Origin: Alphaproteobacteria bacterium
Lineage (GTDB): Bacteria > Pseudomonadota > Alphaproteobacteria > UBA8366
NCBI GenBank assembly: GCA_028281325.1
Contig: JANQKC010000031.1
Span: forward strand, 25,223-89,222
DNA length: 64,000 nt
Direction: 5' to 3'
Shown here in pieces: positions 9,217-56,538 of the stretch (position 1 is the stretch's first letter; each line of letters opens with the position of its first letter). The notes beneath the pieces are model-generated. The model worked only from the letters and a program-made list of their open reading frames with translations. It did not search any database and was not told the origin of the DNA. A program made the translations under genes and the position numbers.

Positions 9217-9863
9217 GCTGGATATCCCACTCTAGCTACCGAGCGCCGACGGCTTTCGAGCCCATTGCACGGATGAAGCGTTGCGATAAGGGAGACCAAT
9301 ATGTTTCGTGTGCCGTACAGCGGGCGATGAGGGCATGAAAAAGGCCAAGTGCCAATCGACCACCGTTGCCATGCCGCTGTTAACCATTCCAAGGCTGCCC
9401 GAGTTATGCGTCAGGTTCTAGAATCCGGTCCGATATTGCGGAACCGCGATCATCGCATATGCGCATCGCGCTCATAGGGTAGTTTTGCGACGGAAACCAT
9501 CAGGATGAAACCGTCTAAAATGGGTATTTAGTACAGTGTTCGGCTCTAGCGGCATTGGGCTCGTGAGCATCCGGTCGATGCTTGGCCAATCTGCTGCCGT
9601 GCCGGTTCGATTCTTGTTTCTGATGACGTCACGCTTTCGACGAGCGACGTGATGGATGATCGCCACTCCACGGGAAGGTTCAGTAATACATTGATATTAA
9701 TGCTATATTAGAAGCGCCATCTGGCGATGTGCGGTCCGGCAGACGGGCTTTGCTTTCGGAAAATAGGTACCACGAACGTAGCATATCGTGACCACGTCGA
9801 TTTAAGTACTGATCTATCTACGGAGTGGCTTGAACGGCGCTTCCAACAAATGGGTGGATTTCG

Positions 9864-10580
9864 ATGAGTGGTATCAAGGCGGTCATTCAAGCGGGTGGCC
9901 AAGGGACAAGGCTTTATCCTTATTCGACGGTATTGCCGAAGGCGTTGATGCCGATCGGGAAAGGAACCGTCGCCGACAAGCTGATCGATATGTTTCGCGT
10001 CGCCGGCGTCGAGGACGTCTACATCACGTTGAGCGACCAGAACAAGATCAGCAGCCTGATCAAGAGCTATTGCGGGGACGGCAGCCGCTACGGCGTCAAA
10101 ATCCATTACATCTCGGAATCCGAGCCGTTGGGGACGATCGGACCGCTGCGGTTGTTCGCGTCCGAGCTGGACACCAGTTTCATGGTGACGAACTCGGATG
10201 TCGCGGTCGATATGGATGTCAGCGAGTTCATCGGATTTCATCAGAAGTCGGACGCCTTGCTGACCGTCGCCGTCGCAAAGCAGACTGTTGCGATCGAGTA
10301 TGGCGTGATGGAAGCCGAAGACGGCCGGGTTCACGGGTTTCGCGAAAAACCGACGGAGGAATTCTGCGTCAGCACCGGCGTGTACTGCATGGAGCCTAGG
10401 ATTCTCGACTATGTTCCGGAAGGGCAGGCGTACGGGTTCGACAGGCTGATCGAGACCTTGCTCGAAAACAAGGAGCGGGTCATGGCGTTCGACCGCACCG
10501 AGAACTGGATCGACATCGGGCGTATCGAGGACTTGCGACGGGCTCAGGAACAAGCGGCCAAAGGGCTTCTGAAAGAGTAG
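9864..10580 (+). CDS. sugar-1-phosphate nucleotidyltransferase (NTP_transferase family)
   Basis: 238 aa. The N-terminal signature KAVIQAGGQGTRLYPYSTVLPKALMPI matches the G-x-G-T-R-L nucleotide-binding loop. Confidence 0.85.
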   Translation: MSGIKAVIQAGGQGTRLYPYSTVLPKALMPIGKGTVADKLIDMFRVAGVEDVYITLSDQNKISSLIKSYCGDGSRYGVKIHYISESEPLGTIGPLRLFASELDTSFMVTNSDVAVDMDVSEFIGFHQKSDALLTVAVAKQTVAIEYGVMEAEDGRVHGFREKPTEEFCVSTGVYCMEPRILDYVPEGQAYGFDRLIETLLENKERVMAFDRTENWIDIGRIEDLRRAQEQAAKGLLKE

Positions 10581-23227: not shown

Positions 23228-24766
23228 TCAGCGTCGGCGGCGCAGCATGCCGCGGACGGCGCCGATGGCGTTCAGGCAAAGCCGCCGCCGCAGGATAATC
23301 GCAGCCAGGCCGAAGCAGGCCGTGTAGATCGTTCCATTCATGACGGCGCTGAAAAAGGCATGGTCGGGCGCGGGCAGCGAGGCGGCGGCTCCCCATGCGG
23401 CGGCCAGACCGATGATCCCGATGAGGTAAGGCCAGTAGACCGCTGCTAGAATTCGATGGAGGGGTACGGAAACGTAGCGACCGCCGATCACCAAGTAGAC
23501 GATGGCGCTTAGGATGGAGTAGGCGCCGATCGCATAGGTGATCTCCATAAGGCCGCCGACCGTTGCGCCGATCGCCGCCGTCGCCATGATGCCGATGGCG
23601 TCCCAACAAGACAGGGCGGTTGTCACCCGCCAAAGACCGCGCGATTCGAGCATGGCCCGGACGACGATGGTCACCGCCGGGCGGGTCGCGGTGATGGCCA
23701 TGACTTCGGCCACCGGCACGGCGTCGTCCCATTTGCCGCTCCAGACGAAACCGATCGTCGGTTCCGCGACCGCGGCGATCGCGAAGCCCAGGAAGAACAT
23801 AACGAAGGTGCTCATCTCCATCGATTGGATGAAGGCGCGGTCGCGTTGTTCCGGCAGTTTCTGCAGGGTCGCGAGGGATGGCGTAAACACCGCGTACAGG
23901 CTTTGGGAAACGATCGTGAAGACGCCTAGCGTCAGCTGAAACCCAAAGAAATACAGACCGATGGTCGTTTTGTCCTCAAGCGCGCCGATCACCATATAGG
24001 CGCCATTGCCGACCAGCGACATGGCGACCAACCCTGGAATGATCCAGGCGCATTGGTGCATTGTAGGCCAGAAAATGCGGAGCTTGGGCAGTGTCGGCCG
24101 CCAGTCGATCCGCGTCCGTCGAAGCAGGAACATCCATTCGAAAACGCCGACAAGAACGAAAGGCCATGCCAGACTGTAGGGACCGAAGCCGAATACGGCG
24201 AGTAAGATGATGGAGATGTTTCGGATCAGCGCCGAGTATCCGTTCAGGACGGATAGCTCGCCGAAGCGTAAGCCGACCGCCAACTCCGCACGCAACAGTC
24301 GCGGGATCGTCTCGGCCGGCACGCTGACGCCGATGATGATCAGCAGCCAGATGACGTCATCGCTTTCGTAGACGCGGCCAATCGCCGGTGCGATGGCCAG
24401 GACGATGGCGAGAAGCCCGATATTGATGATGAAGGACAATCCGCAAAGCGGCCCATAGAGATGGCGAAATGCCTTTCCCCGATAGATCAGAATCTTGTGC
24501 AGGCCGCCGTTGGTTACGAAACCGAATATTTCACCCCATGCGACGGCGATCGCGAACAGGGCGAAATCTTCGGCCGACAGCATCAATCCGGTGACGTAAA
24601 GCGTGCCGATCCCGAGCAGCTTGGCGGCGAGATTGGTTGAGAACAGCATCGTCGCGCCGCGGGTCGCGGTTTCGCTGTAGCTGCGCTGCGATGGCTCGGT
24701 CTGTGTCATCGGGTCCGGTCGTCCCAGCCGAAATGGCGCGGTAACCCCACGATCGCGCGACCGCAT
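23228..24766 (-). CDS. MOP-superfamily polysaccharide flippase (Wzx-like / Polysacc_synt), copy 2
   Basis: 512 aa with about 12-14 hydrophobic segments. The N-terminus (TNLAAKLLGIGTLYVTGLMLSAEDFALFAIAVAW) is typical of the lipopolysaccharide/polysaccharide biosynthesis protein family. Confidence 0.75.
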   Translation of the reverse strand: MRSRDRGVTAPFRLGRPDPMTQTEPSQRSYSETATRGATMLFSTNLAAKLLGIGTLYVTGLMLSAEDFALFAIAVAWGEIFGFVTNGGLHKILIYRGKAFRHLYGPLCGLSFIINIGLLAIVLAIAPAIGRVYESDDVIWLLIIIGVSVPAETIPRLLRAELAVGLRFGELSVLNGYSALIRNISIILLAVFGFGPYSLAWPFVLVGVFEWMFLLRRTRIDWRPTLPKLRIFWPTMHQCAWIIPGLVAMSLVGNGAYMVIGALEDKTTIGLYFFGFQLTLGVFTIVSQSLYAVFTPSLATLQKLPEQRDRAFIQSMEMSTFVMFFLGFAIAAVAEPTIGFVWSGKWDDAVPVAEVMAITATRPAVTIVVRAMLESRGLWRVTTALSCWDAIGIMATAAIGATVGGLMEITYAIGAYSILSAIVYLVIGGRYVSVPLHRILAAVYWPYLIGIIGLAAAWGAAASLPAPDHAFFSAVMNGTIYTACFGLAAIILRRRLCLNAIGAVRGMLRRRR

Positions 24767-40693: not shown

Positions 40694-42460
40694 ATGCACC
40701 CGATTGACAAAAAGATATTCACGCGACTTATCCGCTTGCTTCGTAAGAACCGGCGGTCGGTCTCACCTTCTGAAATCGTCGATGTGGTTGAGATGATTGA
40801 CCCGGTACTCGGATCGCCTGAGGCGGATAAGCCCGGCACGATCAGCGGTGGTGGTCCGCGTGATGGTCGGACGCCCGACAAGGCCGCCGGAAAACCGGCT
40901 GTGTCCGAACCGGGCAGGAAGACCCGCAACGACGAAAGAGTCCTCGGGTCGCCTGAAGTCGGCGATGCCGATTTGGATGCCGCCGTGTCGGAGCAGCGTC
41001 AGGCGGCGGACAATCAGAACGAAGGACCGGGTGTCGTTGTCGCCGATGGAGCGGAGGACCTGACCGGCGCCGAACGCAAGAGCACGATGCTGCGGACCGT
41101 CTCGGTCCGTCAGAGCGAGTTGGCCAAACACGAAAGCAACCTGCCGGACGCGCCGTCCTTTAACATCGTCGCCAACGCGCGCTTATGGCGCCGGGATCAG
41201 GGTAACCTGAATTATTCGGGTGAGGTTGCGAAGCTTTATCGCGATGTTTTCACGCCGACGCGGCCGAAGCGCGCCTATAAAGATTTTTCCGGCCGGCGCG
41301 ATATGATCGAGTCGATCATCCAGGCGGTCGAGGAAGAAAGAACGCATGTCGTGCTTCTCGGCGAGAAGGGGATCGGCAAGACCTCCTTGGCCAACATCGT
41401 TGGCGAATGCGCCAAGGAGGCGGGCTATCTCGTTGCCCGCGTGACCTGCTCCGCCGATCTGACATTCGAACATCTCATGCGGTCGATCCTCGAACAGTTT
41501 TCGAACCGGATCGCCGAAGCGCCCGTCGGCGACCTGCTGCAGAAGCGGCTTGGGGCGTCGGACCTCATCGACCTGATGGAAGACGATGCGTTCGATGTCC
41601 CGTCGGCGATCCGGGTATTCCAGAAGCTTGCGGAAAATCAAGCGATTGTGCTGATCGATGATTTCGAGCGCATCGAGTGTAACGACTTCAAGGTCAAGAT
41701 TGCGGAGTTGATGGAGATCTTGTCCGATCAGGGCGCGTGGTTGTCGCTGCTGATCTTCGGGCGCGGCGCGCGGGCCGTTGACATTCTCCCGGATGCGTTC
41801 GAGACGGTGCCGAACGTTACGTGGCTCAAATTGCAGCCGATGAAGGAAGAGGAATGCAGCCACGCCATCCGGCGGGGTGCGGCATCCGTCGGCATTCGCT
41901 TCGACGAGCCTGTTGTCGACGCGCTGGTCAGCCTGTCGCAGGGCGTGCCGTCGGCGCTGCAATGGCTTTGCCTTCTGTCGATTCGGCGGGCGACGCAACG
42001 GTATGCGTCCGACGTGGAGTTGCAGGACTTGGCCGAGATCGTCGGCCTTGCGGCGAACAAGGTCGATCCGAAACTGAGCGCCTGCTACGACGATTTGTGC
42101 GGTGCCAGGCGCGGGCAGTCGATCGACGACACCTTGTATCTCGCGGTGCGGACGCCGGCCGATTCCAACGGCATCTTTTCCACCGAGAGCATGAGCCATA
42201 TTTCCTTCGACGCGATCGGGCGCTCCATGGTCGAGTTGCCGTTGCATAAGGCGTTGAGCCGGCTCTCCAAGAATGGCGGCGAACAGCCGGCCGTATTGGA
42301 AAAGATGCAGGCGTCGGGCGGGACCTGCTATCGCTTCGTCGATCCGACGATGCGGTCCATCGTGATGATGAAAAATGTCGGTCGTCTGGCCGATATGCCG
42401 GATTCGTTGATCGAGAAGGCCGATAACATCGAATTGCTGCCGTCACCGGGTGCCGCGTAA
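40694..42460 (+). CDS. P-loop NTPase (AAA/ORC-like ATP-binding protein) with a long low-complexity N-terminal region
   Basis: 588 aa. The first ~170 aa are Pro/Gly/Asp-rich and probably disordered. Walker A is VVLLGEKGIGKTSLANIV and Walker B-like is AIVLIDDFERI. It is the first gene of the plus-strand export block. Confidence 0.6.
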   Translation: MHPIDKKIFTRLIRLLRKNRRSVSPSEIVDVVEMIDPVLGSPEADKPGTISGGGPRDGRTPDKAAGKPAVSEPGRKTRNDERVLGSPEVGDADLDAAVSEQRQAADNQNEGPGVVVADGAEDLTGAERKSTMLRTVSVRQSELAKHESNLPDAPSFNIVANARLWRRDQGNLNYSGEVAKLYRDVFTPTRPKRAYKDFSGRRDMIESIIQAVEEERTHVVLLGEKGIGKTSLANIVGECAKEAGYLVARVTCSADLTFEHLMRSILEQFSNRIAEAPVGDLLQKRLGASDLIDLMEDDAFDVPSAIRVFQKLAENQAIVLIDDFERIECNDFKVKIAELMEILSDQGAWLSLLIFGRGARAVDILPDAFETVPNVTWLKLQPMKEEECSHAIRRGAASVGIRFDEPVVDALVSLSQGVPSALQWLCLLSIRRATQRYASDVELQDLAEIVGLAANKVDPKLSACYDDLCGARRGQSIDDTLYLAVRTPADSNGIFSTESMSHISFDAIGRSMVELPLHKALSRLSKNGGEQPAVLEKMQASGGTCYRFVDPTMRSIVMMKNVGRLADMPDSLIEKADNIELLPSPGAA

Positions 42461-43978: not shown

Positions 43979-44354
43979 CGCCCTTTTCCAATCGGTTTTG
44001 AGACATACGCAAGCGGCTGCGTCGTTCGATTTCGGCGCAGCTCTTTGCGTATCGGATTGCCCTATCCTATCGATCGGGTAGGGCGTTTCTATCTGCCATC
44101 GTAGATAGCGGTTTTGGGCGCATTACAATGCCGCAACCATCGCGGCGGCCGAATTGCGTCAATTTTTGGTAGTAATACTAAAGGCATGGGTTAGTTCTCT
44201 GAACTTCTTACTATAATCGTTTTTAGTGAACCGTCGGAAACGGCCCGGCTTGGCCGTGCGTCGGCGGATGCGGAAAGGGGTCTGTGCCCTCTTTCGTCTC
44301 GACGACGACAAGAACCCGGAATTAACGATTAGGACGGAATCAAAGGCGCTGGTC

Positions 44355-44894
44355 ATGATGAAAATGATGCGTTCGATATTTACGGTTTTCCTGTTGGTCG
44401 GCTTTTCGGCGTCTGCCTGGGCCGGTGATGCCACCTATAGCCTGGGGGCGGGCGACAAGGTCCGTATTACCGTGTTCGGCGAGCCCGACCTGACCGGTGA
44501 GTATGAGGTCGACGGGTCCGGCGTCGTGGCGTTCCCCCTGGTCGGTGAAGTGCAGGCTGCCAGCGGCACGGCGCGGGATCTTGAGCGTCGGATCGTGGCA
44601 AAGTTGCAGGAAGGCTATCTGAAGCATCCGACCGTCAATGTCGAGGTCTTGACCTATCGTCCGTTCTTCATCATGGGCGAAGTAAAGGCGCCAGGCGGGT
44701 ACGCCTATCGTAACGGGTTGACGTTGATGAATGCCGTGGCCATGGCGGGCGGATACACCTATCGCGCAAAGTCGAATGTCTGGGTGGTCACGCGCGACGG
44801 CGGCGAGCGGAAGATGCAGGCCGAGGAAATTGCCAATGGGAATTTCCGCGTGTTGCCGGGCGATACGATCCTTATTCCAGAACGTTTCTTTTAA
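44355..44894 (+). CDS. wza: short polysaccharide export (OPX, Wza/GumB-like) protein
   Basis: The most plausible start is ATG 44355 within ORF 44226..44894, giving the signal peptide MMKMMRSIFTVFLLVGFSASAWAG. The Poly_export motif is YSLGAGDKVRITVFGEPDLTGEYEVDGSGVVAFPLVG...PTVNVEVLTYRPFFIMGEVKAPGGYAY. There is one SLBB-like module. At only about 179 aa it lacks a C-terminal outer-membrane helix domain. Confidence 0.85.
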   Translation: MMKMMRSIFTVFLLVGFSASAWAGDATYSLGAGDKVRITVFGEPDLTGEYEVDGSGVVAFPLVGEVQAASGTARDLERRIVAKLQEGYLKHPTVNVEVLTYRPFFIMGEVKAPGGYAYRNGLTLMNAVAMAGGYTYRAKSNVWVVTRDGGERKMQAEEIANGNFRVLPGDTILIPERFF

Positions 44895-45319: not shown

Positions 45320-47704
45320 ATGCAACGTAAGATCGCGTTTCAGTCCAATCAAGAAGATGTCGTTGATCGCCCGATTATCGACGTAACCCCGGAACCCGTG
45401 GATGAGGTCAGCCTTAGGGATGTTCTCGACCGGCTTCGTCGTCGTTGGGGGATCATGCTCGGTATCGTTTGTATCGCGCTGGTCATCACGACGGTATTCC
45501 TGTTTTCCGTCAAACCGACCTATACGGCGATGGGGCAGCTTCTGCTCGATAACCGCGCCAACCAGGTGACCAACATTCGCTCGGTCGTCGAGGCGTCGTC
45601 CTCGGATCTCGCCGACGTGCCGAACGAGGTCGAGATTCTCAAATCGAGCATCCTCGCCGGCATGGTGGTCGAGGAGCTTGGCCTGTACAAGGATCCGGAA
45701 TTCAACATCGCCCTGCGCGAAAAGAACCTCGAGGGTAAGTCGCCCTGGCAGCAGGTCATGTTCACCGTTGAAGAGGCTATTCAAGATTTCTTCCACGGTG
45801 AGGAAAAGGGCCCGCAGCTGAAGCCGGAGGACAAAAAGAAAATCGACGACCGGCTCGTCATCGGTACGCCGGCTGTTGACCGCGCCCATATCAACGAACG
45901 GTTCGCGAAGCACCTGACCATCAAGGCGACGGAGCGCGCGCGTATCATCGATGTGGAGTTCGAGTCCAAGGACCCGGTCAAGGCGTCGAACGTGGTCAAT
46001 GTCCTGATGCGCATCTATCTCGCCAATCAGGTTCAGTACCAGAAGCGCGGTATTCAGAAGGCCACGGAACGGCTGGAAAAAATTGTCGCCGAGCTGAAGG
46101 GCGAAGTGCTGGCCGCGGAAGATTCGGTGCAGGCGTTCCGCTCCCAGTCTCGCTTGATCGAAGCGAGGGGCACCAGCGTTACGGCGCAGCAGCTCGCGGA
46201 ATTGAACTCGCAGCTTGTGCAGGCTCGCGCCGACGAAGCGGCGGCGGCGGCTCGCTTGTCGCAGGTTTCCCGGTTGCTGAAGGTGCCGGGCAGCATGGAC
46301 GCGGCGCCGGATGTTTTGGCATCGCCGCTGATCCAGTCTTTGCGCAACACCGAAGTGACCCTCATTCGCGAGCGGTCGGATCTTTCAAGCCGGTATGGCG
46401 AGAAGCATCCGCGGATGATCAAGATTCGCACCGAGATCCGCGACTTGCGCAGCAAGATTCGGGAAGAGATCAACAAGATCGTCGAAGGGTTGTCGAATGA
46501 GGTGGCGGTTGCCCGGGCGAAGCTCTCGGCGTTGCAGCGCGGTCTCGGTAAACTCGAAGGCGAGGCGATCGACATCAACAAGTCGGAGATTCGGCTGCGC
46601 GAGCTGGAGCGGGAAGCGAACTCGAAGCGCGAACTGCACCGGACCTTCATCATCCGCCTGCGTGAGACGAGCGCGCGAGAGGAGATGATCGAGCCGACCG
46701 CCCGTGTCGTTTCCTTCGCCGAGCCGCCCCGCAAGCCGTCCTTCCCGAAGAAGGGCAAGACGCTGGCGATCGCCACGATGCTATCCGCTTTGTTCGCGAT
46801 TGCGGCGGCCTTGGTCCTCGAAGGATTGCGGCGCAATTTCGAGACGGCGGAAGAGGTGGAAAAGATCACCGGCTATCGGTGCCTCGGCGTGTTGCCGCGG
46901 ACGCAGAAGGCGCTCGCGACATTGCAGCCGGGTGAACACAAGCACCTTATGAACCCGTACTCACGTCTCAATCAGGCGATACAAAACGTCCGGTCGACCC
47001 TCTACCTCGCCAATGAGTCGCGCCATCCGAAGACGCTGCTCGTCACCTCGGCCTTGCCGCGGGAAGGGAAGTCGACCTTCGCGATGTGGTATGCGACCTT
47101 CTGTGCGAGCACGGGCAAGAAAGTCCTCTTGATCGATTGCGATTTCGAGCGTCCGAAGATTCACAAGATGCTGGGCGTCGGGAACGACGAGGGCTTGATC
47201 AACGTTTTCGCCGATAACCTGGACGTCAAGGATGTCATCCGTGACGACGCCAAGCGGGGGATCAGCTTCATCTCCGCCGGCAGCGGACATGGGAACGCGT
47301 CCAAGGTCATTGAATCGGCCAAGATGCAGGATATTCTCGACACGCTGGCGTGGGACTATGACTTGATCGTCATCGACTCGGCCCCGGTCCTGGCCCTTAC
47401 CGACGCGCATATCATCGCGAAGTTGGTGGACAGCACGGTCTTCGTTCTGCAGTGGCGACGGACGCGGCGCGACTTGGCCGTTGCCGCGGCGCGGCGGTTG
47501 GAGAGCATCGATGTGACGTCGCTCGGCGGCTTCATCCTGACGCAGGTGAGTCCCAGCAAGAGCGCCGGCGTCATCGGCTACTCGCCGTATACCAAGGACA
47601 TGGACGAGGGAACCGCCAGCGCGTTCAAGCGTTACATCCGGCGCCTCACCGGTCGGGGATCGTCGGCGGACGGCACGAAGATGCCGCCGCAGCTTGAGGC
47701 ATAG
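45320..47704 (+). CDS. wzc: polysaccharide co-polymerase fused to a BY-kinase-type P-loop ATPase (Wzc/GumC/ExoP-like)
   Basis: 794 aa. The N-terminal Wzz region contains SLRDVLDRLRRRWGIMLGIVCIALV. A long coiled-coil periplasmic segment follows, then a second TM helix. The ATPase has Walker A SALPREGKST, A' LLIDCDFERP and B LIVIDSAPVLALTDA. The C-terminus carries a few Tyr residues (GYSPYTKD...KRYIRR). Confidence 0.85.
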   Translation: MQRKIAFQSNQEDVVDRPIIDVTPEPVDEVSLRDVLDRLRRRWGIMLGIVCIALVITTVFLFSVKPTYTAMGQLLLDNRANQVTNIRSVVEASSSDLADVPNEVEILKSSILAGMVVEELGLYKDPEFNIALREKNLEGKSPWQQVMFTVEEAIQDFFHGEEKGPQLKPEDKKKIDDRLVIGTPAVDRAHINERFAKHLTIKATERARIIDVEFESKDPVKASNVVNVLMRIYLANQVQYQKRGIQKATERLEKIVAELKGEVLAAEDSVQAFRSQSRLIEARGTSVTAQQLAELNSQLVQARADEAAAAARLSQVSRLLKVPGSMDAAPDVLASPLIQSLRNTEVTLIRERSDLSSRYGEKHPRMIKIRTEIRDLRSKIREEINKIVEGLSNEVAVARAKLSALQRGLGKLEGEAIDINKSEIRLRELEREANSKRELHRTFIIRLRETSAREEMIEPTARVVSFAEPPRKPSFPKKGKTLAIATMLSALFAIAAALVLEGLRRNFETAEEVEKITGYRCLGVLPRTQKALATLQPGEHKHLMNPYSRLNQAIQNVRSTLYLANESRHPKTLLVTSALPREGKSTFAMWYATFCASTGKKVLLIDCDFERPKIHKMLGVGNDEGLINVFADNLDVKDVIRDDAKRGISFISAGSGHGNASKVIESAKMQDILDTLAWDYDLIVIDSAPVLALTDAHIIAKLVDSTVFVLQWRRTRRDLAVAAARRLESIDVTSLGGFILTQVSPSKSAGVIGYSPYTKDMDEGTASAFKRYIRRLTGRGSSADGTKMPPQLEA

Positions 47705-47739: not shown

Positions 47740-47770
47740 AAAGGCGGCGGATGTTTTCCGCCGCCTTTTC
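47740..47770 (+). terminator. rho-independent terminator after the wzc-like gene
   Basis: Stem AAGGCGGCGG (47741-47750) / CCGCCGCCTT (47758-47767), loop ATGTTTT, then a T-run. Confidence 0.65.
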
Positions 47771-47973
47771 GATTCCGCCATGGTCGCGATGGGCGTTGAC
47801 CGCGACCTTTCGCCCTGGGCCGTTCACGGCATTGTGCCAAGAAGATCAGGTCGGTAGGGTTGAAAGAGCCGGTCGGCTATTTAAGTGGTAGCTGCCACGG
47901 GAATTTATCCGTAGCATCTGATACTATCGCTGCGACCGGACATTTTAGATTCACCGAGGTTACCGAGATCGAC

Positions 47974-48498
47974 ATGCCAGCCAGACGGTTCCGCGTGCAC
48001 TGCCTGTATACCGCCTTGGCCGTTCTGCTCCTTTTGCCGGGGGGCGCGGCGAAGGCCGAACCCATGGTCATGGGTTGGATCGAGAGGGTTCAGATCGATC
48101 CTGGCGGTCTCATGATGGACGCGAAGATGGATACCGGCGCCAAGACCACCTCTATCGATGCGCAGGATATCAAAGAGTTCGATCGTGACGGGAAGAAATG
48201 GGTTCGTTTCACGGTCTCCAACAGGAAAGGGCGGACCGTGACCTTCGAGCAGCCGATCGTGCGCGTTGCGCGCATCCGGCGGGCGGAGATGAAGACCACG
48301 TCCCGTCCCGTTGTGATGTTGCCGCTGTGCATCGGGAATGTGCGCCAGGTGGTGGAGGTCAATTTGGCGAACCGTTCGCATCTGAATTATCCGTTGCTCG
48401 TGGGCCGGACAGCCATGACGGGGAAAGTGATCGTCGATTCTTCGCGCAAATACACCAACGATCCGATGTGTCAGGGACCAAAGCCGGGTAAAGGATGA
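47974..48498 (+). CDS. retropepsin-like 'ATP-dependent zinc protease' family protein (RimK-associated, DUF785/Zn_protease type)
   Basis: The likely start is ATG 47974 within ORF 47860..48498, giving the signal peptide MPARRFRVHCLYTALAVLLLLPGGAAKAEP. The family pattern is GWIERVQIDPGGLMMDAKMDTGAKTTSIDAQDIKEFDRDGKKWVRF. The stop overlaps the next gene's start (48495-48498). Confidence 0.75.
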   Translation: MPARRFRVHCLYTALAVLLLLPGGAAKAEPMVMGWIERVQIDPGGLMMDAKMDTGAKTTSIDAQDIKEFDRDGKKWVRFTVSNRKGRTVTFEQPIVRVARIRRAEMKTTSRPVVMLPLCIGNVRQVVEVNLANRSHLNYPLLVGRTAMTGKVIVDSSRKYTNDPMCQGPKPGKG

Positions 48499-50027
48499 AG
48501 AACACCCACCCGTATGTTCTTGCCGCCGTGTTGGCGGTGATCGGGATTTCCATCTTCGTTTACAAGTATGTCGGATTGGGGCTGCCGCTGACGGCGGGGG
48601 AGTCGTCGCAGACCTGGCAGATCGAGACGCGGCTCGCCTTCCGGGCGGGTATGGGGCCGACAAAGGTGGTGCTTCAGTACCCCAGCAATACCGGCCGCTT
48701 CGCGATTATCGACCAAAACTTCGTGGCGCCCGGTTATGGGCTTTTCACCCAGGTGCAGGATGAGAATCGCCAGTCGGTCTTCGCGATCCGCGATGCGCTG
48801 GGCGAACAGGTGCTCTATGCCAGCTTTGTCGCGCATCTCGTGCCGCGGTCGACGGAGTTCATTCCCATGGAAGAGTCGCCGCCGGAAGCGACGATCCGCC
48901 TCATCGGCGCCAAACTGTTGGCGGGGCAGTCGGTCTTGGATGCGGCGCGGGCAAAATCGGCCGATACGCCGACGCTGGTGCTGGCGGTTCTCTCGCGTCT
49001 CGGCTTGGCCGGGTCCGACGACCGGGTCGACGTGCTGCTCGACAACCGGAATTCGCCGGCGCTGGTCGCGGGCGCGGCGGTGGACGTTCTCGCCCTTGCG
49101 GGTATTCCCGCCCGCGTGGTGCACGGTGTCCGCCTTGTTCCGGGCGCGCGCAATGTCAATTTCATTCATTGGATCGAAGCTTATAGCGACGGGTTTTGGC
49201 GTCCTTACCGGTTGACGGCGCAGCAACCCGGATTACCGGAAAACTATTTTCCGTGGTGGCGGGGCGACGCGCCCTTCGTTGAATCGAATATCATGGGCAA
49301 CATCGATACGTTGGTGACGGTTGCCAGGGCCACGGAAACGACCGGCCGGTCGGCGCTGGTGCCGTTGAGTTTCATGGAGCGCAGCCTCTTGGACTTTTCG
49401 CTCCTGACGCTGCCGTTGGACGTCCAACAGGTGTTCCGCGTCATCCTCATGGTGCCGCTGGGTGTCCTGCTCCTCGTATTCCTGCGCAACGTCATCGGCG
49501 TCATCATGTTTGGAACTTTCATGCCGGTGCTGATCGGGCTGGCATTTCGCGAAACGACGCTACTGTGGGGATTGTTCCTGTTCACCGTCGTGGTCGGCGC
49601 CGGTCTGATGGTGCGCGTGTATCTGGAGTATCTGAAGCTGCTTGTGGTGCCGCGGCTCGCTTGCGTGCTGATCGTCGTGATCATCCTCATGACCTTCCTT
49701 AGCGTGTTGACGCACAAGCTGGGCGTGGACCGTGGCTTGTCGATCGCCTTGTTTCCGCTGGTGATCATCACGATGACCATCGAACGCATGTCGATCGTCT
49801 GGGACGAGAACGGGCCGGCGACGGCGTTGAAACAAGGCCTCGGCAGTCTCGTCGCCGCGTCATTATGCTATTCCGTGATGACGATCGAATATCTGGAGCA
49901 TCTGTTCTTCGTCTATCCGGAGATTTTGATCGTGTTACTGGCGATGTCGATCCTGCTCGGACGGTATAGCGGATACCGATTGCTGGAGCTTTGGCGCTTC
50001 CGGGAATTCGTCAAGGTGGCCAACTGA
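48495..50027 (+). CDS. inactive-transglutaminase domain fused to a 7-TM module (UUP1-type membrane protein)
   Basis: 510 aa. An N-terminal TM helix is followed by a periplasmic domain (GESSQTWQIETRLAFRAGMGPTKVVLQYPSNTGRFAIIDQNFVAPGYGLF). The C-terminal ~200 aa contain about 7 hydrophobic helices (VILMVPLGVLLLVFLRNVIGVIMFGTFMPVLIGLAF...). Confidence 0.7.
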   Translation: MKNTHPYVLAAVLAVIGISIFVYKYVGLGLPLTAGESSQTWQIETRLAFRAGMGPTKVVLQYPSNTGRFAIIDQNFVAPGYGLFTQVQDENRQSVFAIRDALGEQVLYASFVAHLVPRSTEFIPMEESPPEATIRLIGAKLLAGQSVLDAARAKSADTPTLVLAVLSRLGLAGSDDRVDVLLDNRNSPALVAGAAVDVLALAGIPARVVHGVRLVPGARNVNFIHWIEAYSDGFWRPYRLTAQQPGLPENYFPWWRGDAPFVESNIMGNIDTLVTVARATETTGRSALVPLSFMERSLLDFSLLTLPLDVQQVFRVILMVPLGVLLLVFLRNVIGVIMFGTFMPVLIGLAFRETTLLWGLFLFTVVVGAGLMVRVYLEYLKLLVVPRLACVLIVVIILMTFLSVLTHKLGVDRGLSIALFPLVIITMTIERMSIVWDENGPATALKQGLGSLVAASLCYSVMTIEYLEHLFFVYPEILIVLLAMSILLGRYSGYRLLELWRFREFVKVAN

Positions 50028-51013
50028 TGCTGCAGACACTCCGCAGTCTTAAGAAACTGGGTATTGTCGGGCTCAATGCCCGCAACGCCCAGTACATCCT
50101 GCCGAATAACGCGCGCGAGAATTATCCGGCGGTCGATGACAAGCTGTTGACCAAGGAGATTGCGATCGCGGCGGGGCTCGCGGTGCCGAAGCTCTACGAT
50201 GTCATTCGCATTAACCACGAGATCAAGGAGCTGGAAGATCGTATCGCGGGGATGGACGAATTCGTGATCAAGCCGGCGCAAGGCAGCGGCGGGGACGGGA
50301 TTCTCGTCGTCATCAGCCGGTCGGGCGATCGCTACCGGCTCGCCTCGGGTGAGATCCTGACGCTGGACGAAATCGGCTATCACGTGCACATGATCCTGGC
50401 GGGCGTCTATAGCCTGGGAGGCCAGCCGGACAAGGCGTTGATCGAGTATCGGGTTCGATTTGATCCGCTGTTCGAGAAGATCGCGTATCAGGGCGTTCCG
50501 GATGTTCGGATCATCACCTATCTTGGGGTTCCCGCCATGGCGATGGTTCGTTTGCCGACCCGTCAATCGCGGGGCCGGGCCAATCTCCATCAGGGCGCCA
50601 TCGGCGCCGGAATTGACATGGGGACGGGCATGACGCTGTCCGCGGTCTGGAACAGCCGCATGGTTTCCGAGCACCCGGACACGGGAAACCCCGTGTCGGA
50701 CCTGAAGATTCCCTATTGGGACGAGATGTTGCTGCTCGCCGCAAAGTCGCAGCAATTGACCAAACTCTGCTATCAGGGCATCGACATCGTTCTGGACCGG
50801 GACCTTGGGCCGCTCATCCTGGAAATGAATGCCCGACCCGGGCTGGCTATTCAGATTGCCAACCAGGCGGGGCTCAAACCCCGTTTCGACATCATTGATG
50901 CGCATGTCGGGACGCACGCGGACGAACCCGCCCGCGTCGTCTTCGCCAAGGAGCGGTTCAATGTCGCAGCATTGGCGTCTTCTTCAGGAACCGGTGGCGT
51001 CGCTCGGCGTTAA
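50027..51013 (+). CDS. alpha-L-glutamate-ligase-like (RimK-related) ATP-grasp protein
   Basis: The likely start ATG 50027 overlaps the upstream TGA (50025-50027). Motifs: LGIVGLNARNAQYILPNNARENYPAVDDKLLTKEIA, FVIKPAQGSGGDGILVV, GPLILEMNARPGLAIQ. Confidence 0.8.
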   Translation: MLQTLRSLKKLGIVGLNARNAQYILPNNARENYPAVDDKLLTKEIAIAAGLAVPKLYDVIRINHEIKELEDRIAGMDEFVIKPAQGSGGDGILVVISRSGDRYRLASGEILTLDEIGYHVHMILAGVYSLGGQPDKALIEYRVRFDPLFEKIAYQGVPDVRIITYLGVPAMAMVRLPTRQSRGRANLHQGAIGAGIDMGTGMTLSAVWNSRMVSEHPDTGNPVSDLKIPYWDEMLLLAAKSQQLTKLCYQGIDIVLDRDLGPLILEMNARPGLAIQIANQAGLKPRFDIIDAHVGTHADEPARVVFAKERFNVAALASSSGTGGVARR

Positions 51014-51318
51014 CCATGTAAGCTGAATGTGTCGGTGCCCGTCCGCCAGGTAGGCATCGGAAGTGAGGGCTTTAAAGCGAGTAGAATCAACGCTCAAACG
51101 GCAATTAGGCTTATAGAGCTACTCCTAAAGTATAGGATTGGCAAACTAAATTTAATTCAAAAGCAGTAATCTAAAATTCGTCCTAATTACCTCTAAATCT
51201 GAATATTCCCCAAACGGATAATTCGATACAGTAGTCAAATATTCGAAGGGATGAGGCCGTTGGGGTGGGGATGCTACCGACGGTCGAGAGTTTGAGAAAC
51301 GAATTCAGGGGTGTCGAA

Positions 51319-51918
51319 ATGAATTGTGTCTCAGTTGGCTTGGTCAGCAGCGACCAGTTTTTCCGCGAAGGCCTCAAGGCTCTATTGGAAGAGAACGGGT
51401 ACAAGGTCACCGCCAGTGTTGCCGATCAGCGGGAACTGGATGCGGCGATGTCGCCGGCCGACACGCCGGTCATGGTCCTCATCGACCTGGCTCGCGATAT
51501 CGATACGGCTGCCGATCAGCTTCGGTGCCTCAACAGCAATCTGCCGGGGGTGGGCATCGTTTCCTTCAGTGATGAGCGGGACGGTGACTGGCTGACGATC
51601 TGTGAGGACTACGAAGCGAGCGCTCTGTTGCGCAAACAGGTTTCTTTCAAGGCGCTGCTGCACTGTCTCGAATTGGTGATGATCGGCGAAAAGGTCATGC
51701 CGACCGACATGCCCCGGACCACGCGCGAGCGGTCCGGCGAGGCCGGCCACGGCGCGGTGCAAGGCCAGAGCGCCGAACCGAAAGGCGATGTCATCCCGTG
51801 CATGACCTGCGGCCAGCCCTTCGAGACCGAAGATCGGCGCACCAACCGAATCTGTTCCAGCTGCAAATCACGGATGTCGCGCATCAGCAGCGTGTCCGAG
51901 CATACGCTCCACTACTAA
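51319..51918 (+). CDS. receiver (REC)-like domain protein with a C-terminal CxxC...CxxC zinc-ribbon-like tail; no HTH
   Basis: The likely start is ATG 51319 within ORF 51265..51918. The NarL/FixJ-type REC layout is VGLVSSDQFFREGL (acidic pair degraded to S-D), VMVLIDL (candidate phospho-Asp), GIVSFS and SALLRKQ. The C-terminus is CMTCGQPFETEDRRTNRICSSC. Confidence 0.5.
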   Translation: MNCVSVGLVSSDQFFREGLKALLEENGYKVTASVADQRELDAAMSPADTPVMVLIDLARDIDTAADQLRCLNSNLPGVGIVSFSDERDGDWLTICEDYEASALLRKQVSFKALLHCLELVMIGEKVMPTDMPRTTRERSGEAGHGAVQGQSAEPKGDVIPCMTCGQPFETEDRRTNRICSSCKSRMSRISSVSEHTLHY

Positions 51919-51982: not shown

Positions 51983-53014
51983 TCAGCTTTTTGACCAGAC
52001 GATCGCGCGGTCGCCGTCTACCGTCAGGTCGACGCCGTGGTCGGCCGATGCGGTCCGCAGCAGCTCCAATTCGGTCTCTTCATCCTGCATGCTGCACAGA
52101 TAGGTTTCGTTCCGATCATTGTGCCGCACAAAGGAAAAGGCCGCCTGATCGAGTTGCCCGTCGGTGACGGATAGGTCGACCATCAGCCCGATCCAATCCG
52201 GGTGGAGCTTTCCCCAATGCCCGGTTTCGAAGGAAAAGCTGCCGAGTCCGTAAAACACCGGCTTGTCCTTATAGACCTCCATCGCGTTCGGGACATGCGG
52301 GCCGTGACCCATCACGATATCGGCGCCGGCATCGATGGCGGCATGGGCGATTTCCCGCTGGTACTGCAGCACCTCGCGGTTCAGGCCCCAATGATTGCTC
52401 GAGACGACAACGTCGGCGCGCTTCCTAAGGGCGGCGATATCCGCACGGAACTGGTCCAACGCGTCCGGCTCGGTCCATGTAATCACCTCCGGCGGCATGC
52501 CGGGGCGGGTGATGGTTCTGAGATTCTCGATCGGCGGTCGGTACGCGGTATGCGCCTTAAGCGTCGCGACACCGGCATAGTCGTCGGTCGCCGCATGGCC
52601 TTGGGAGTGGAACACCGACGTGCGTTGCATGAAACCGTATCGTACGCCGTTCCGTTCGATGATGATCGGTTGGGCGGCGGCTTCCCGGTTGATGCCCGCG
52701 CCGCAATGGGGCATGCCGGCGCGGTCCAGCGCCTGTAGCGATGATCGGATCGCCGGGGTGCCGAAGTTGACGTTGTTGGCGTTCCCGATTCCGTGGATAC
52801 CGGCGATGTTGAGCGCGTCGACAGTCGCCAATGGGGCGTAGAAACCTTCTTCGTCCACCGAACGTTCCTCCGCGGGCTCGTAGAAGCAGCATTCGAGATT
52901 GGCGAACACGACGTCGGCAGAGTGCAGCGTCTCTTTGATCTTGGCGAAGGGGATCGTGGGATCGGAAACCCCCATCAAGTTGATATCGCCGATCAAAATC
53001 ACTTTATGCTGCAT
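51983..53014 (-). CDS. CapA-family (PGA_cap) metallophosphoesterase-like protein
   Basis: 343 aa. Motifs: ILIGDINLMG, ADVVFANLECCF, IGNANNVNFG, and VVVSSNHWGLN...IVMGHGPH. No signal peptide is evident. Confidence 0.8.
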   Translation of the reverse strand: MQHKVILIGDINLMGVSDPTIPFAKIKETLHSADVVFANLECCFYEPAEERSVDEEGFYAPLATVDALNIAGIHGIGNANNVNFGTPAIRSSLQALDRAGMPHCGAGINREAAAQPIIIERNGVRYGFMQRTSVFHSQGHAATDDYAGVATLKAHTAYRPPIENLRTITRPGMPPEVITWTEPDALDQFRADIAALRKRADVVVSSNHWGLNREVLQYQREIAHAAIDAGADIVMGHGPHVPNAMEVYKDKPVFYGLGSFSFETGHWGKLHPDWIGLMVDLSVTDGQLDQAAFSFVRHNDRNETYLCSMQDEETELELLRTASADHGVDLTVDGDRAIVWSKS

Positions 53015-53278: not shown

Positions 53279-55252
53279 CTAGCCGCCCAGCCACCACGGC
53301 ATATCGACGACCGTCTGCAACAGGCCCGGCGGATACCGCAGGGTCAGGAAGTGCGACATGATGCCGAGGAAGGATACGCCTGCGATCCCCAGGGCCGCGT
53401 TTCGCAGCATCGACCCATCGGCCTTTTTCGTGATGAAGATGAAGATGAACAGGGCGCAGCCGATCGGGAAGCCGACAAGCGCCACGATCGCCAGCATGCC
53501 GACGATCCAGCCCAAATAATGATACTCGTTATGCTCGGCTGCTAATCCGCGCTCATTGTCGTAGAGAACGGCGTTCGCCGCTTTCTGCCGGATGATGGAT
53601 ATGACGAGCGGGATCGACAGGGCCAAGCTGATGATCGAAACGGTCATCGGGAAGACCGCGCCGCGCGGATGATACTGGAAGCTGTCGATCAGGGCGAACA
53701 CGGCAAAGGCAACGACGGCCCCGGCGAACACGAGCTGCGGCCTCTTGTTACCGAAACCGTGCGGCCCTTCCTGCTCGTAGGTTTTGCCGCGGTTCGGCGA
53801 GAAACGCCACGCCGAGTAGATCGAGAGAATCGTGAGTATCAGCAGCACGATCACGATCGGGCGTTCGAAGAAGCTCCAACCATAGACCTGAGCCGCCTGG
53901 TAAATCTTCGGCTCAAGGCGCGGCGCCAGGAAGTAGCCGATCAGCAGCGCCGGCCGCGACCAACCGAACCGTTTCATGAAACAGCCCAGCGTGCCCATGA
54001 CCAACAGGGCGATCAGGTCCTGCCAGTCGCGGGTTGCCTGAAAGGCCGCGAAGAAGATCAGCATGATCATGAACGGCGCCAGCAGCGCGTAGCGGATTGT
54101 GGTCAGCAGGGCCACATAGTTGGCCAAGGCGAGGCATAGTCCGGCGCCGATGACGTTGGCGAGGGCCAGCGACCAGATCATCACGAAGGTGAGGTTGAGA
54201 TGCTCGGTGATCATCGTGATGCCGGGCTCGACGCCGACCAGAATAAAGCCGCCGAGCAGGATCGCCATGCTGCCCGATCCGGGAATGCCGAAAAGCAGGG
54301 TCGGGATCAGCGCGCCGCCTTCCTTGGCGTTGTTGGCGGCTTCGGGCGCAAGCACGCCGCGAATGTCGCCTTTGCCGAACCCTTCGCGGTCCTTGGTGGT
54401 TTGAACCACATGCCCGTAGGCGATCCAGTCGACGACCGATCCGCCGAGGCCGGGCAGGGCGCCGACGACGCAGCCGATAACGGCGCAGCGCAGCACGATC
54501 CACTTGTTCCGAAACGCGTCCTGGAAGCCCTGGAACCAACCCTTGCCGAGTTTTCCGGTCTCCGAGATTGCCGTTCCCCGCCGAAGCAGGTCGACGATCT
54601 CCGGCAGGGCGAACATGCCGAGGCCGACGATCACGATGGGGATGCCTTCGCTGAGATAGATGGACCCCATCGTCATGCGGAACTCGCCGGTGGCCGGTGC
54701 GGCGCCGATGCTGCCGAGCAGCAGGCCGAAGGTGCAGGTCGCGAGTCCTTTCAGCGCACTGGTGCCGGTCAGCATGCCGATCATGCTGAGCGCCAGAACG
54801 ATCAAGAGAAGCTGCTCGCCGAAACCCATGGCGAGAATAATTGGCCGGGCGGCGAAGATCGCACCCGTCAGGACCATGGCGCCGAACAGCCCGCCGAACA
54901 AGGACGCCGTGAAGGCGGCGCCAAGCGCGCGCGCGCCTTCGCCACGTTTGGACAGCGGAAAACCGTCGACGACCGTTGCCTGTGATCCCGCGGTGCCGGG
55001 TATCCCCATGAGCACCGATGGAAAGGTGTCTGATGTCGTGGTTGGCGCGAGAAGGCCGATCATCATCGACAAGGCGTGCGACTCTTCCATGCCGAAGATA
55101 AACGGCAGGATAATCGACAAGCCGGCAATGCCGCCAAGCCCCGGCAGAATACCTACGACAAGACCCAGCATCGTTCCCAAGACCAGGAAGAACAGGTGGG
55201 TCGGCGTAAACATGTCCGTAAGGGCTTGGAAAAAGAAATCGACTTCAGGCAT
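53279..55252 (-). CDS. tctA: tripartite tricarboxylate transporter large permease TctA with a fused C-terminal TctB-like 4-TM module
   Basis: 657 aa. The first ~500 aa are typical TctA (LGLVVGILPGLGGIAGLSIILPF, GALPGLGGSVVDWIAYG). The extra ~150 aa contain four further hydrophobic helices (PIVIVLLILTILSIYSAW..., LVFAGAVVAFAVFALI, VFPMTVSIISLALSIPLVI, LGWIVGMLAIVALVGFPIGCALFIFIFI). No separate tctB gene is adjacent. Confidence 0.85.
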   Translation of the reverse strand: MPEVDFFFQALTDMFTPTHLFFLVLGTMLGLVVGILPGLGGIAGLSIILPFIFGMEESHALSMMIGLLAPTTTSDTFPSVLMGIPGTAGSQATVVDGFPLSKRGEGARALGAAFTASLFGGLFGAMVLTGAIFAARPIILAMGFGEQLLLIVLALSMIGMLTGTSALKGLATCTFGLLLGSIGAAPATGEFRMTMGSIYLSEGIPIVIVGLGMFALPEIVDLLRRGTAISETGKLGKGWFQGFQDAFRNKWIVLRCAVIGCVVGALPGLGGSVVDWIAYGHVVQTTKDREGFGKGDIRGVLAPEAANNAKEGGALIPTLLFGIPGSGSMAILLGGFILVGVEPGITMITEHLNLTFVMIWSLALANVIGAGLCLALANYVALLTTIRYALLAPFMIMLIFFAAFQATRDWQDLIALLVMGTLGCFMKRFGWSRPALLIGYFLAPRLEPKIYQAAQVYGWSFFERPIVIVLLILTILSIYSAWRFSPNRGKTYEQEGPHGFGNKRPQLVFAGAVVAFAVFALIDSFQYHPRGAVFPMTVSIISLALSIPLVISIIRQKAANAVLYDNERGLAAEHNEYHYLGWIVGMLAIVALVGFPIGCALFIFIFITKKADGSMLRNAALGIAGVSFLGIMSHFLTLRYPPGLLQTVVDMPWWLGG

Positions 55253-55407: not shown

Positions 55408-56538
55408 CTACTTGCCGAGCGTCACGCCGTAGCGGGCCTGGACGTAGTTACCCAGCCACTTCTTGGCGTTCGGTGAAAGCGTCGTCGCGGCGTCGCGAAT
55501 TGCGAAGGCGCCGTCACCAATGGTCTGCGGATAAGGTCCGAACATCTTGTCACGCTTCGCGATGAAGTCCGGATCTTCCAACATCTTCTTGGCTGCGGTG
55601 CGGTACGCCTCGACGATGTCTTTCGGCGTGCCGGCCGGCAGGTTCCAAGATTTCGACATGGTCACGCTCATCTGATAGAGCGAATACCACGCTTCAAACG
55701 CATCGCCGTCCGGCTTCTTACCGTTAACGGCCTCGTACACTTCCATGAAGTGCGGAACGTTCGGAAGCGCCGGATCGCGCACGATCGTGCCGTCTTCATT
55801 CACCACACCGAGGGTGTAGAGCGGAATGGCGATGCCGTCGGCGATCAGCTTCTTGCGGTTGTTCTTGAACGACAGCGTGTTGTCGTAGTTCACGGTGAAC
55901 TCGCCGCGTTCGAAGGCGAGCGCCATCGGGCCGTTACCTTTCATGCCCCAGACGCTCTTGACCTCGATGCCGAGCATGCTCAGCGCGACACGCAGGTTCA
56001 AGCCGCCCGACGTCGGCGTCTTACCGCCGAAAATCAACTCGTCCGGCGTGAAGGACCGCATCTTTTCGATCTTCGCCTTGATCGTCTTTTCGTCCTGAAT
56101 GCCGAGATCCTTCCGCACATACTGCGTGATGCCGCGCGGCGACAGGATGACGGGAATGAACTCGTTCAGTTTGAACTTCACGCGCGGATCGCCGAGCGCA
56201 AAGTTCGAGATGGTCGAGGTGGACAGCGCGAAGACCGTTTCGCCATCCGGCTTGGCCCTCTGCTGGAAGAAGTTACCGCCGAGGATGCCACCGGCGCCCG
56301 GCTTGTTCACGACCAGAATCCTCGGGTTGCCCGGAAGATATTTCTGGAAGTACGGTTGCATGAAGCGCGTGTAGCTATCGGTTCCGCCACCTTCGTTGAA
56401 CGGAACGATAACGGTAATGCGCTTACCCGAGAAATCGGCTGCAACGGCATCCTGCGCCGACACCGCTGTCATGCCGATGGCCGCGCCAGCGATGGCAAAA
56501 GCCCCCGCCACGCCGCCAAGCGTCGTTTTCTTGAACAT
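55408..56538 (-). CDS. tctC: TTT-family (Bug/TctC-like) periplasmic substrate-binding protein
   Basis: 376 aa with the signal peptide MFKKTTLGGVAGAFAIAGAAIGMTAVSAQDAVA. The family core is KRITVIVPFNEGGGTDSYTRF...VVNKPGAGGILG...KPDGETVF. Confidence 0.8.
   Translation of the reverse strand: MFKKTTLGGVAGAFAIAGAAIGMTAVSAQDAVAADFSGKRITVIVPFNEGGGTDSYTRFMQPYFQKYLPGNPRILVVNKPGAGGILGGNFFQQRAKPDGETVFALSTSTISNFALGDPRVKFKLNEFIPVILSPRGITQYVRKDLGIQDEKTIKAKIEKMRSFTPDELIFGGKTPTSGGLNLRVALSMLGIEVKSVWGMKGNGPMALAFERGEFTVNYDNTLSFKNNRKKLIADGIAIPLYTLGVVNEDGTIVRDPALPNVPHFMEVYEAVNGKKPDGDAFEAWYSLYQMSVTMSKSWNLPAGTPKDIVEAYRTAAKKMLEDPDFIAKRDKMFGPYPQTIGDGAFAIRDAATTLSPNAKKWLGNYVQARYGVTLGK

Follow-up and report, generated by a model that had tools for sequence, protein, structure and literature searches.

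A probable rloABC orthologue at the edge of an alphaproteobacterial polysaccharide locus

This study deals with three adjacent genes located in a 64,000-nucleotide stretch of DNA, hereafter called the window, from an uncultured alphaproteobacterium (GTDB lineage UBA8366; contig JANQKC010000031.1, positions 25,223 to 89,222 of the forward strand). The genes occupy positions 47974-51013 of the window and encode a retropepsin-like protease, a membrane protein with an inactive transglutaminase-like domain, and an ATP-grasp ligase. We consider it probable that this triad is self-contained, translationally coupled, and orthologous to the rloABC operon of Pseudomonas aeruginosa, that its products act in a single RloC-RloB-RloA pathway, and that its position next to the export genes wza and wzc is specific to the lineage rather than functional. 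Judged from the sequences, the locus would be an alphaproteobacterial addition to the recently characterized rloABC operons, with all their defining features apparently present: each architectural feature and each motif of rloABC that can be assessed in silico was recovered, and the shortfalls are confined to the narrow cut-offs of the NCBIfam models. The appropriate annotation is rloABC, not “zinc protease” or “capsule-linked ligase.” In Pseudomonas, the Rlo system matters for hypo-osmotic survival, biofilm formation, and tolerance to beta-lactams.

The three genes follow each other on the forward strand and are coupled by very short overlaps (Table 1). The rloA and rloB frames share an ATGA at 48495-48498, and those of rloB and rloC meet within a TGATG at 50025-50029, as read in the sequence. 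An initial annotation, made from the letters of the window and its open reading frames (ORFs), had described three genes linked in this way, and the positions that it gave are exact. The two motifs that it quoted are likewise present, DAKMDTGAKTTSIDA at residues 49-63 of the first protein and FVIKPAQGSGGDGILVV in the third. Its family readings, namely a secreted retropepsin-like protein, an inactive-transglutaminase/7TM protein, and a RimK-related ATP-grasp enzyme, all hold in profile searches, where PF05618, PF14400/PF14402, and PF14397/TIGR02291 were matched with scores far beyond chance. The tight coupling that it stressed is also borne out, and small overlaps turn out to be found throughout the family. 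The GC content of the triad is 60.1%, vs. 59.6% for the whole window, and no direct or inverted repeats bracketing the triad were found; there is no sign of insertion by a mobile element. A scan of the whole window with Rfam at gathering thresholds gave no match.

Table 1. Features of the window. Positions are nucleotides of the window unless residues are indicated; TM, transmembrane.
Feature	Position	Strand	Remarks
rloA	47974-48498	+	174 aa, ATG start; PF05618, 133 bits, E 8e-39
rloB	48495-50027	+	510 aa; PF14400, 106 bits, and PF14402, 306 bits
RloB N-terminal TM helix	residues 8-26		predicted; inner-membrane protein
RloB periplasmic beta-sandwich and cysteine-less transglutaminase-like domain	residues ~27-300
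RloB C-terminal multi-helix TM domain	residues ~300-510		highly conserved
rloC	50027-51013	+	328 aa; PF14397, 299 bits, and TIGR02291, 432.6 bits
Wzx-like flippase	23228-24766		polysaccharide locus
STAND-type ATPase	40694-42460		polysaccharide locus
BBP2_2 outer-membrane barrel		+	upstream of triad, before Wza
Wza-like	44226-44894	+	upstream of triad
Wzc-like	45320-47704	+	upstream of triad
Terminator-like GC-rich hairpin with U-run	47741-47772	+	starts 37 nt after wzc stop; upstream boundary of rlo unit
Conserved non-coding element	51159-51215	+	AAAAGCAGTAATCTAAAATTCGTCCTAATTACCTCTAAATCTGAAT...; inside the 42%-GC spacer 51014-51264
REC-like gene	51265-51918	+	weak receiver match; likely true start ATG 51319
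PGA_cap (CapA-family)	51983-53014	-	convergent, ~1 kb downstream of triad
tctA	53279-55252	-	precedes PGA_cap, which is the last gene
tctC	55408-56538	-	precedes PGA_cap, which is the last gene

The pointer to rloABC came from NCBIfam, where the best matches are models named RloA, RloA2, RloA3, and RloB. In P. aeruginosa PA14, the operon corresponds to PA14_41690, PA14_41710, and PA14_41730 and contains the same triad (Lormand et al., mBio 2025; PMC12239564). The RloA proteins described there are aspartic peptidases of the retropepsin-like type that are secreted, form dimers, and have a channel of positive charge; poly-glutamate is cleaved by RloA in vitro, and both its catalytic aspartate and its basic residues are needed in vivo in Pseudomonas (PMC12239564). 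A triple mutant, from which every rloA paralogue has been deleted, fails to grow in hypo-osmotic (salt-free) medium and is also impaired in biofilm formation, beta-lactam tolerance, and cell shape; these defects are suppressed by deletion of rloB or of rloC (PMC12239564). The initial annotation knew of no experimentally defined substrate or phenotype for such a triad, a statement that is now out of date since the genetics of rloABC and the cleavage of poly-glutamate by RloA have been published (PMC12239564). No further functional study was found in the literature under other names or locus tags. The triad of the window shares with the P. aeruginosa operon its gene order, its domain architecture, and its coupling by start/stop overlaps, and the likeness extends to the individual proteins.

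RloA begins with a signal-like N-terminus (residues 1-28, ending AKA/EP) made up of a basic n-region (R4, R5, and R7) and a hydrophobic segment (8-26), from which export of the protein is predicted. The catalytic DTGA is found at residues 53-56 (48130-48141) and a cysteine pair at Cys119 and Cys166. In comparisons with proteins of the PDB, the crystallized RloA structures 9g58 (E 5e-26) and 9g59 (E 8e-24) come first, followed by 2pma (1e-16); DTGA is aligned with DTGA and the two cysteines with those that form the disulfide in 9g58 and 9g59. The basic residues of the channel are K51, R97, R111, and R134 and correspond, by sequence offset and PDB alignments, to K46, R92, R114, and R137 of P. 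aeruginosa RloA. Among 73 orthologues, D53, G55, and C119 are conserved in 100% and C166 in 86%, and the four channel positions are basic in 99% (K51), 96% (R97), 99% (R111), and 100% (R134). The signal-like N-terminus, the DTGA motif, the cysteine pair, and the lysine and arginine residues of the channel are all features of the Pseudomonas protein.

RloB has the N-terminal anchor, the inactive transglutaminase domain, and the 7TM domain of its Pseudomonas counterpart. The match of PF01841 is weak, and no cysteine occurs between residues 27 and 300, nor is any cysteine invariant in the family alignment. An AlphaFold2 model has a predicted local distance difference test score (pLDDT) mostly of 76-92 across residues ~41-280. 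A Foldseek search with this periplasmic part retrieved 3isr, a transglutaminase-fold “putative cysteine protease” (E 3e-11), where a sequence search of the PDB had given a marginal match alone. Invariant columns are concentrated in the membrane part, which holds 65 out of a total of 88, that is 65 in 210 residues vs. 23 in the 300 N-terminal ones. The TM part is therefore about four times richer in invariant columns; its conserved charged residues include R331, R352/E353, E430/R431, and E476. At E<=1e-30, the RloB family comprises 489 clusters at 50% identity; it is moderately large and stereotyped. In Shewanella, a transposon screen related disruption of an inactive-transglutaminase/7TM gene to increased production of membrane vesicles. 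In the locus closest to that of the window, L001 (OZ245815.1, 10001-11529; 91% RloB identity), a metagenome-assembled genome (MAG) labelled Alphaproteobacteria, two overlapping segments, residues 1-216 and 204-510, share the rloB match between different frames; this reflects either a frameshift or an error of the long-read assembly of that MAG.

RloC is of the cytoplasmic type, with neither a TM segment nor a signal-like N-terminus. Like the Pseudomonas protein, this amidoligase belongs to TIGR02291 (alpha-L-glutamate ligase-like), whose cut-off of 314.2 bits is clearly exceeded, with residues 3-313 of the protein covering positions 2-315 of the 317 of the model. Across 20 homologues of 57-92% identity, invariant residues include K82, E140, D253, E266, N268, and R270, which, from their analogy to positions of other enzymes of the ATP-grasp type, we take to bind ATP and Mg. 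A sequence search of the PDB gave no match for RloC. With an AlphaFold2 model (pLDDT 86.7), the best Foldseek neighbours are ArgX (3vpb), RimK (5zk6, 5zct, 4iwx, and 7qys), cyanophycin synthetase (7wae), and Ddl, with E values of 1e-10 to 1e-9. ArgX/LysX, RimK, and CphA1 all extend a C-terminal carboxylate: they activate this group on a peptide or protein substrate and attach an amino acid there. The LysX/ArgX enzymes, which depend on LysW, and CphA1 differ from RloC in sequence, with an identity of only 14-20%, in their carrier-protein or multidomain context, and in family, RloC being assigned to the distinct PF14397/TIGR02291. The window protein, at 328 residues, is longer than its close relatives (318-322 residues); the surplus corresponds to a Ser/Gly-rich C-terminal tail of low model confidence (50984-51013).

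Several observations weigh against the assignment or against parts of the proposed pathway. On the window RloA, the NCBIfam models for RloA, RloA2, and RloA3 (NF052262-4) score 127.5, 133, and 125 bits, respectively, vs. cut-offs of 280, 250, and 210; the RloB model (NF052267) is aligned collinearly over its full length (residues 3-507) at 378 bits vs. a cut-off of 900. The equivalence with the Pseudomonas proteins is accordingly argued from architecture and synteny, as apparent orthology, rather than from a curated threshold. The flap of the window RloA is 7-10 residues shorter than in the crystallized proteins, which could alter specificity. In the TM part of the RloB model, the pLDDT falls to 31-56; only the periplasmic domain of the model is usable, and the model lends no structural support to a conduit role or to a channel or transporter fold. 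Finally, no sigma-70-like promoter was found in the spacer 47773-47973 by a scanner that also missed the hairpin preceding it. Regarding the scores, NCBIfam built its models of RloA and RloB narrowly, as “exception” or “equivalog” models, and alignments extending over full length at sub-cut-off scores therefore point to a distant orthologue rather than to a different family. Other differences from P. aeruginosa concern the host, since the published work emphasizes Gammaproteobacteria, the lack of any visible RloA paralogue in the 64-kb window, and the genomic context at the edge of an exopolysaccharide (EPS) locus.

The arrangement seen in the window recurs in other genomes. A scan of one genome per species gave at least 592 RloB loci, of which the best 80, independent of each other, were analysed. 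The rloC gene follows rloB in 79 of these 80 loci and rloA precedes it, giving the order A-B-C, in 69; three of the 11 loci without rloA before rloB lie at contig ends. The median junction is -4 nt from A to B and -1 nt from B to C, and genes overlap or lie at most 30 nt apart at 63 of 72 A-B junctions and 78 of 83 B-C junctions. The operon extends beyond Gammaproteobacteria, into Alphaproteobacteria and MAGs labelled Nitrospirales, Desulfobacterales, Magnetococcales, and Bdellovibrionota. An rloB-rloC pair without adjoining rloA was observed in L081 (~9021-10000), L030, L040, L048, L054, L067, L071, L074, and L076. Such loci are consistent with the existence of unlinked RloA paralogues, of which RloA2 and RloA3 are examples in Pseudomonas. 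Conversely, L031 has rloA and rloB, with no rloC detected within 4.9 kb downstream. Overall, rloABC behaves as a portable three-gene module that has no fixed neighbours. A few peptidoglycan genes adjoin the triad, with an Amidase_2 gene after rloC in L083 (12564-13427) and L087 (6762-7580), a Sel1/SPOR protein before rloA in L082 (7769-9298), and M23 peptidases in two loci; anecdotally, these neighbours point towards the cell wall, as was suggested for Pseudomonas (PMC12239564).

In the pathway that we favour, RloC would act in the cytoplasm as a RimK/LysX-type enzyme, using ATP to form an acyl-phosphate on a carboxylate and adding amino acids to the acceptor. The added residue would most probably be L-glutamate in alpha linkage, so that a Glu-rich acidic peptide or tail would be formed; the specificity of RloA and the family of RloC make glutamate the best guess. 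In the inner membrane, the conserved TM domain of RloB would be the functional core, serving as a conduit or a platform for RloC, and the cysteine-less transglutaminase-like domain on the periplasmic side would be a binding module that couples the product to the envelope. RloA would be a periplasmic homodimer whose basic channel accommodates the acidic product, which it would cleave so that no harmful build-up occurs. That the rloA-null defects are suppressed when rloB or rloC is lost agrees with a product that does harm when left untrimmed. The net role would be in homeostasis of the envelope or cell wall, which in Pseudomonas shows itself as tolerance to hypo-osmotic stress. The nature of the RloC product, its transport or presentation by RloB, and any activity of this particular locus are deduced from homology and from the published genetics, and the window gives no particular access to what the Rlo system produces biochemically.

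A related system is the glutamylation of ribosomal protein S6 by RimK and its trimming by RimB, with RimA as an additional component. There too, a RimK-related ATP-grasp ligase is paired with a PF05618 protease that cleaves poly-alpha-glutamate. However, RimB is cytosolic and has neither a signal peptide nor the cysteine pair, and the rim locus is devoid of an RloB-like membrane protein. That the triad could itself be a RimK/RimB system is contradicted by the score of the RimK model TIGR00768 on RloC (35 bits vs. a cut-off of 143), by that of the RimB model NF052261 on the protease (78 bits vs. 200, with the RloA models scoring higher at 125-133), and by the signal-like N-terminus of the protease. 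No genetic interaction between rimB and the rloA genes is seen in Pseudomonas (PMC12239564).

The RimK/RimB analogy inspires a signalling scheme, which we regard as rather unlikely. RloB would be a 7TM receptor whose pseudo-enzyme domain senses a ligand in the envelope and controls RloC, RloC would modify a cytoplasmic protein, as RimK, its structural relative, does with S6, and RloA would process the periplasmic ligand instead of the RloC product. The lack of a TM segment and of a signal-like N-terminus in RloC is in keeping with such a scheme, but the basic channel of RloA and its cleavage of poly-glutamate in vitro match the product expected from a RimK-like ligase, and the full suppression obtained by loss of rloB or rloC fits an RloA that removes what RloB and RloC make. 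Regulatory genes are indeed found nearby: in L081, the genes before rloB encode a histidine kinase, a binding protein, and a response regulator, and all through the close clade rloC is followed by a REC-like gene, although this last gene is also present without rlo genes (L084-L086). In Vibrio cholerae, the operon is part of the VxrAB cell-wall-damage regulon (PMC12239564). On the other hand, bioinformatic searches by the same authors for genome-encoded proteins with poly-Glu stretches, which could be RloA substrates, failed to find any (PMC12239564).

Downstream of the triad, the REC-like and CapA-family genes that the initial annotation had mentioned were both found, the former with a weak receiver match and the latter as a convergent PGA_cap gene. 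The REC-like protein contains a receiver-type domain with invariant D28, D72, and K122, fused to an invariant C-terminal CxxC...CxxC and an EHTLH tail; D72 is taken to be the phospho-acceptor and the CxxC...CxxC to be zinc-ribbon-like. Its family is small, with 50 proteins of ~200 residues, 56-100% identical, in a set of 5.8 billion proteins, and the few members that carry a source name are from Alphaproteobacteria MAGs. The convergent PGA_cap gene comes after the REC-like gene in every locus examined. A strongly conserved non-coding element (Table 1) is located ~160 nt upstream of the start codon of the REC-like gene in the window and in all eight clade loci. It is kept whether rloC or wzc lies upstream and has no Rfam match; it belongs to the REC-like gene, probably as a promoter/operator or a 5' leader. 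Alignment of the intergenic DNA revealed no precise insertion boundaries, just this conserved element. As for the PGA_cap protein, no signal-like N-terminus was recognized on reading its sequence, and its closest solved relative is MslH, a lasso-peptide C-terminal epimerase (8gq9, E 6e-19). It looks like a part of a transporter-linked metabolic unit, not of a capsule system.

These neighbours raise the question of a larger cluster. In the six rlo-carrying loci of the clade (the window, L001, L081, L082, L083, and L087), REC-like and PGA_cap genes adjoin rloC, or rloC plus Amidase_2, without exception, and the PGA_cap family includes both the poly-gamma-glutamate protein CapA/PgsA and the peptide epimerase MslH. 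One could imagine that in this clade rloABC, the REC-like zinc-ribbon protein, and a cytoplasmic PGA_cap protein constitute one poly-glutamate pathway. This is very unlikely. The REC-like/PGA_cap pair occurs without adjoining rlo genes in L084-L086, the other 78 genome loci have neither gene close to the triad, and PGA_cap is on the opposite strand, where it comes last after tctC-tctA in the window, L001, L081, L083, and L087. In L084-L086, a forward-strand MmgE/PrpD gene is inserted between PGA_cap and tctA, and in L082 PGA_cap follows an ATP-grasp_5/CoA-binding gene. The more specific proposal that rloABC was recruited into a larger unit of the clade, with the clade-specific REC-like regulator, which has its own conserved upstream element, controlling a Glu-rich RloC product and the MslH-like PGA_cap protein processing it, for example by epimerization or hydrolysis, is very unlikely as well; if true, it would open a first way to what the Rlo system makes. 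A PgsBCA/CapBCA system was also considered, given a PGA_cap gene so close to the triad and glutamate polymers as the suspected chemistry. It differs from the arrangement found here, where PGA_cap is closest to MslH, is carried by the opposite strand after tctC-tctA, and is also present without rlo; it was rejected as no Mur-ligase-type CapB/PgsB and no CapC were seen among the large ORFs scanned at 19-64 kb, and the absence of a CapB/PgsB-type ligase there also speaks against the larger cluster.

Upstream, the triad comes immediately after wzc in the same orientation and borders on a large EPS locus that covers ~23-47.7 kb or more, and the Pfam title of PF14397 is “sugar-transfer associated ATP-grasp.” The initial annotation had considered that the placement of the triad after the Wza/Wzc block, with a CapA-family and a REC-like gene nearby, strengthens a link to surface-polymer modification or to signalling; it had also placed a terminator between the Wza/Wzc block and the triad. 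The terminator was found by folding as a hairpin at 47741-47772 with a dG of -32.4 kcal/mol and a z score of -3.77, none of 200 shuffled sequences folding as well. A simple terminator scan had skipped it, its T-run being in part taken up by the extended stem. In L085, too, there is an analogous hairpin after wzc. The wzc-rloA spacer measures 269 nt and, with its strong hairpin, argues against co-transcription with wzc, although no promoter-like site was found in this spacer.

The placement argument itself is not supported by comparison across genomes. Wza/Wzc genes were found within 10 kb of the triad in one of the 79 other genome loci, namely L001, and this is also the only one with homologues of the window Wza, Wzc, PGA_cap, or REC-like gene within that distance. 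When 14 flanking proteins of the window were compared with the other 79 loci by phmmer, a more sensitive search, three stray glycan-type matches were obtained, in L014 (a Wza-like ORF at a distance of 9 kb), L016 (a Ugd-like ORF), and L035 (a GT4-like ORF). In a Pfam survey of the two ORFs flanking the triad on either side at 49 loci (98 proteins per side), no family occurs in more than five of 98 flanking proteins on either side, and export, chain-length, glycosyltransferase, and PGA_cap families are absent among the 25 commonest families of each flank. Within the close clade, L084, L085, and L086 have the order STAND ATPase-BBP2_2-Wza-Wzc followed directly by the REC-like and PGA_cap genes, and lack rlo genes there. 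In L082, L083, and L087, rloABC adjoins the REC-like and PGA_cap genes and has no export genes upstream. In L081, which is devoid of rloA, the regulatory genes mentioned above are located between Wzc and rloB. Therefore, the export block and the rlo block come and go independently beside a constant REC-like/PGA_cap pair. The adjacency in the window is synteny shared with the 91%-identical L001 and is not evidence of function, so that modification of the polysaccharide of the adjoining Wzx/Wza/Wzc locus by the triad, for example by glutamylation or trimming, is highly improbable. The locus gives no evidence for polysaccharide modification, and a tempting inference by guilt-by-association is thereby removed.

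The polysaccharide locus upstream of the triad is large (~19000-47704). In addition to the genes listed in Table 1, it encodes a beta-helix protein, a CDP-alcohol phosphatidyltransferase, a lipid-A-type acyltransferase, a luciferase-like monooxygenase with an AMP-binding enzyme, and an epimerase, together with a GT4 glycosyltransferase, a UDP-glucose dehydrogenase, a heparinase II/III-like protein, a fused dehydrogenase, and an AsnB-type amidotransferase. It also displays partial, sub-threshold matches to PEP-CTERM/exosortase-associated models.

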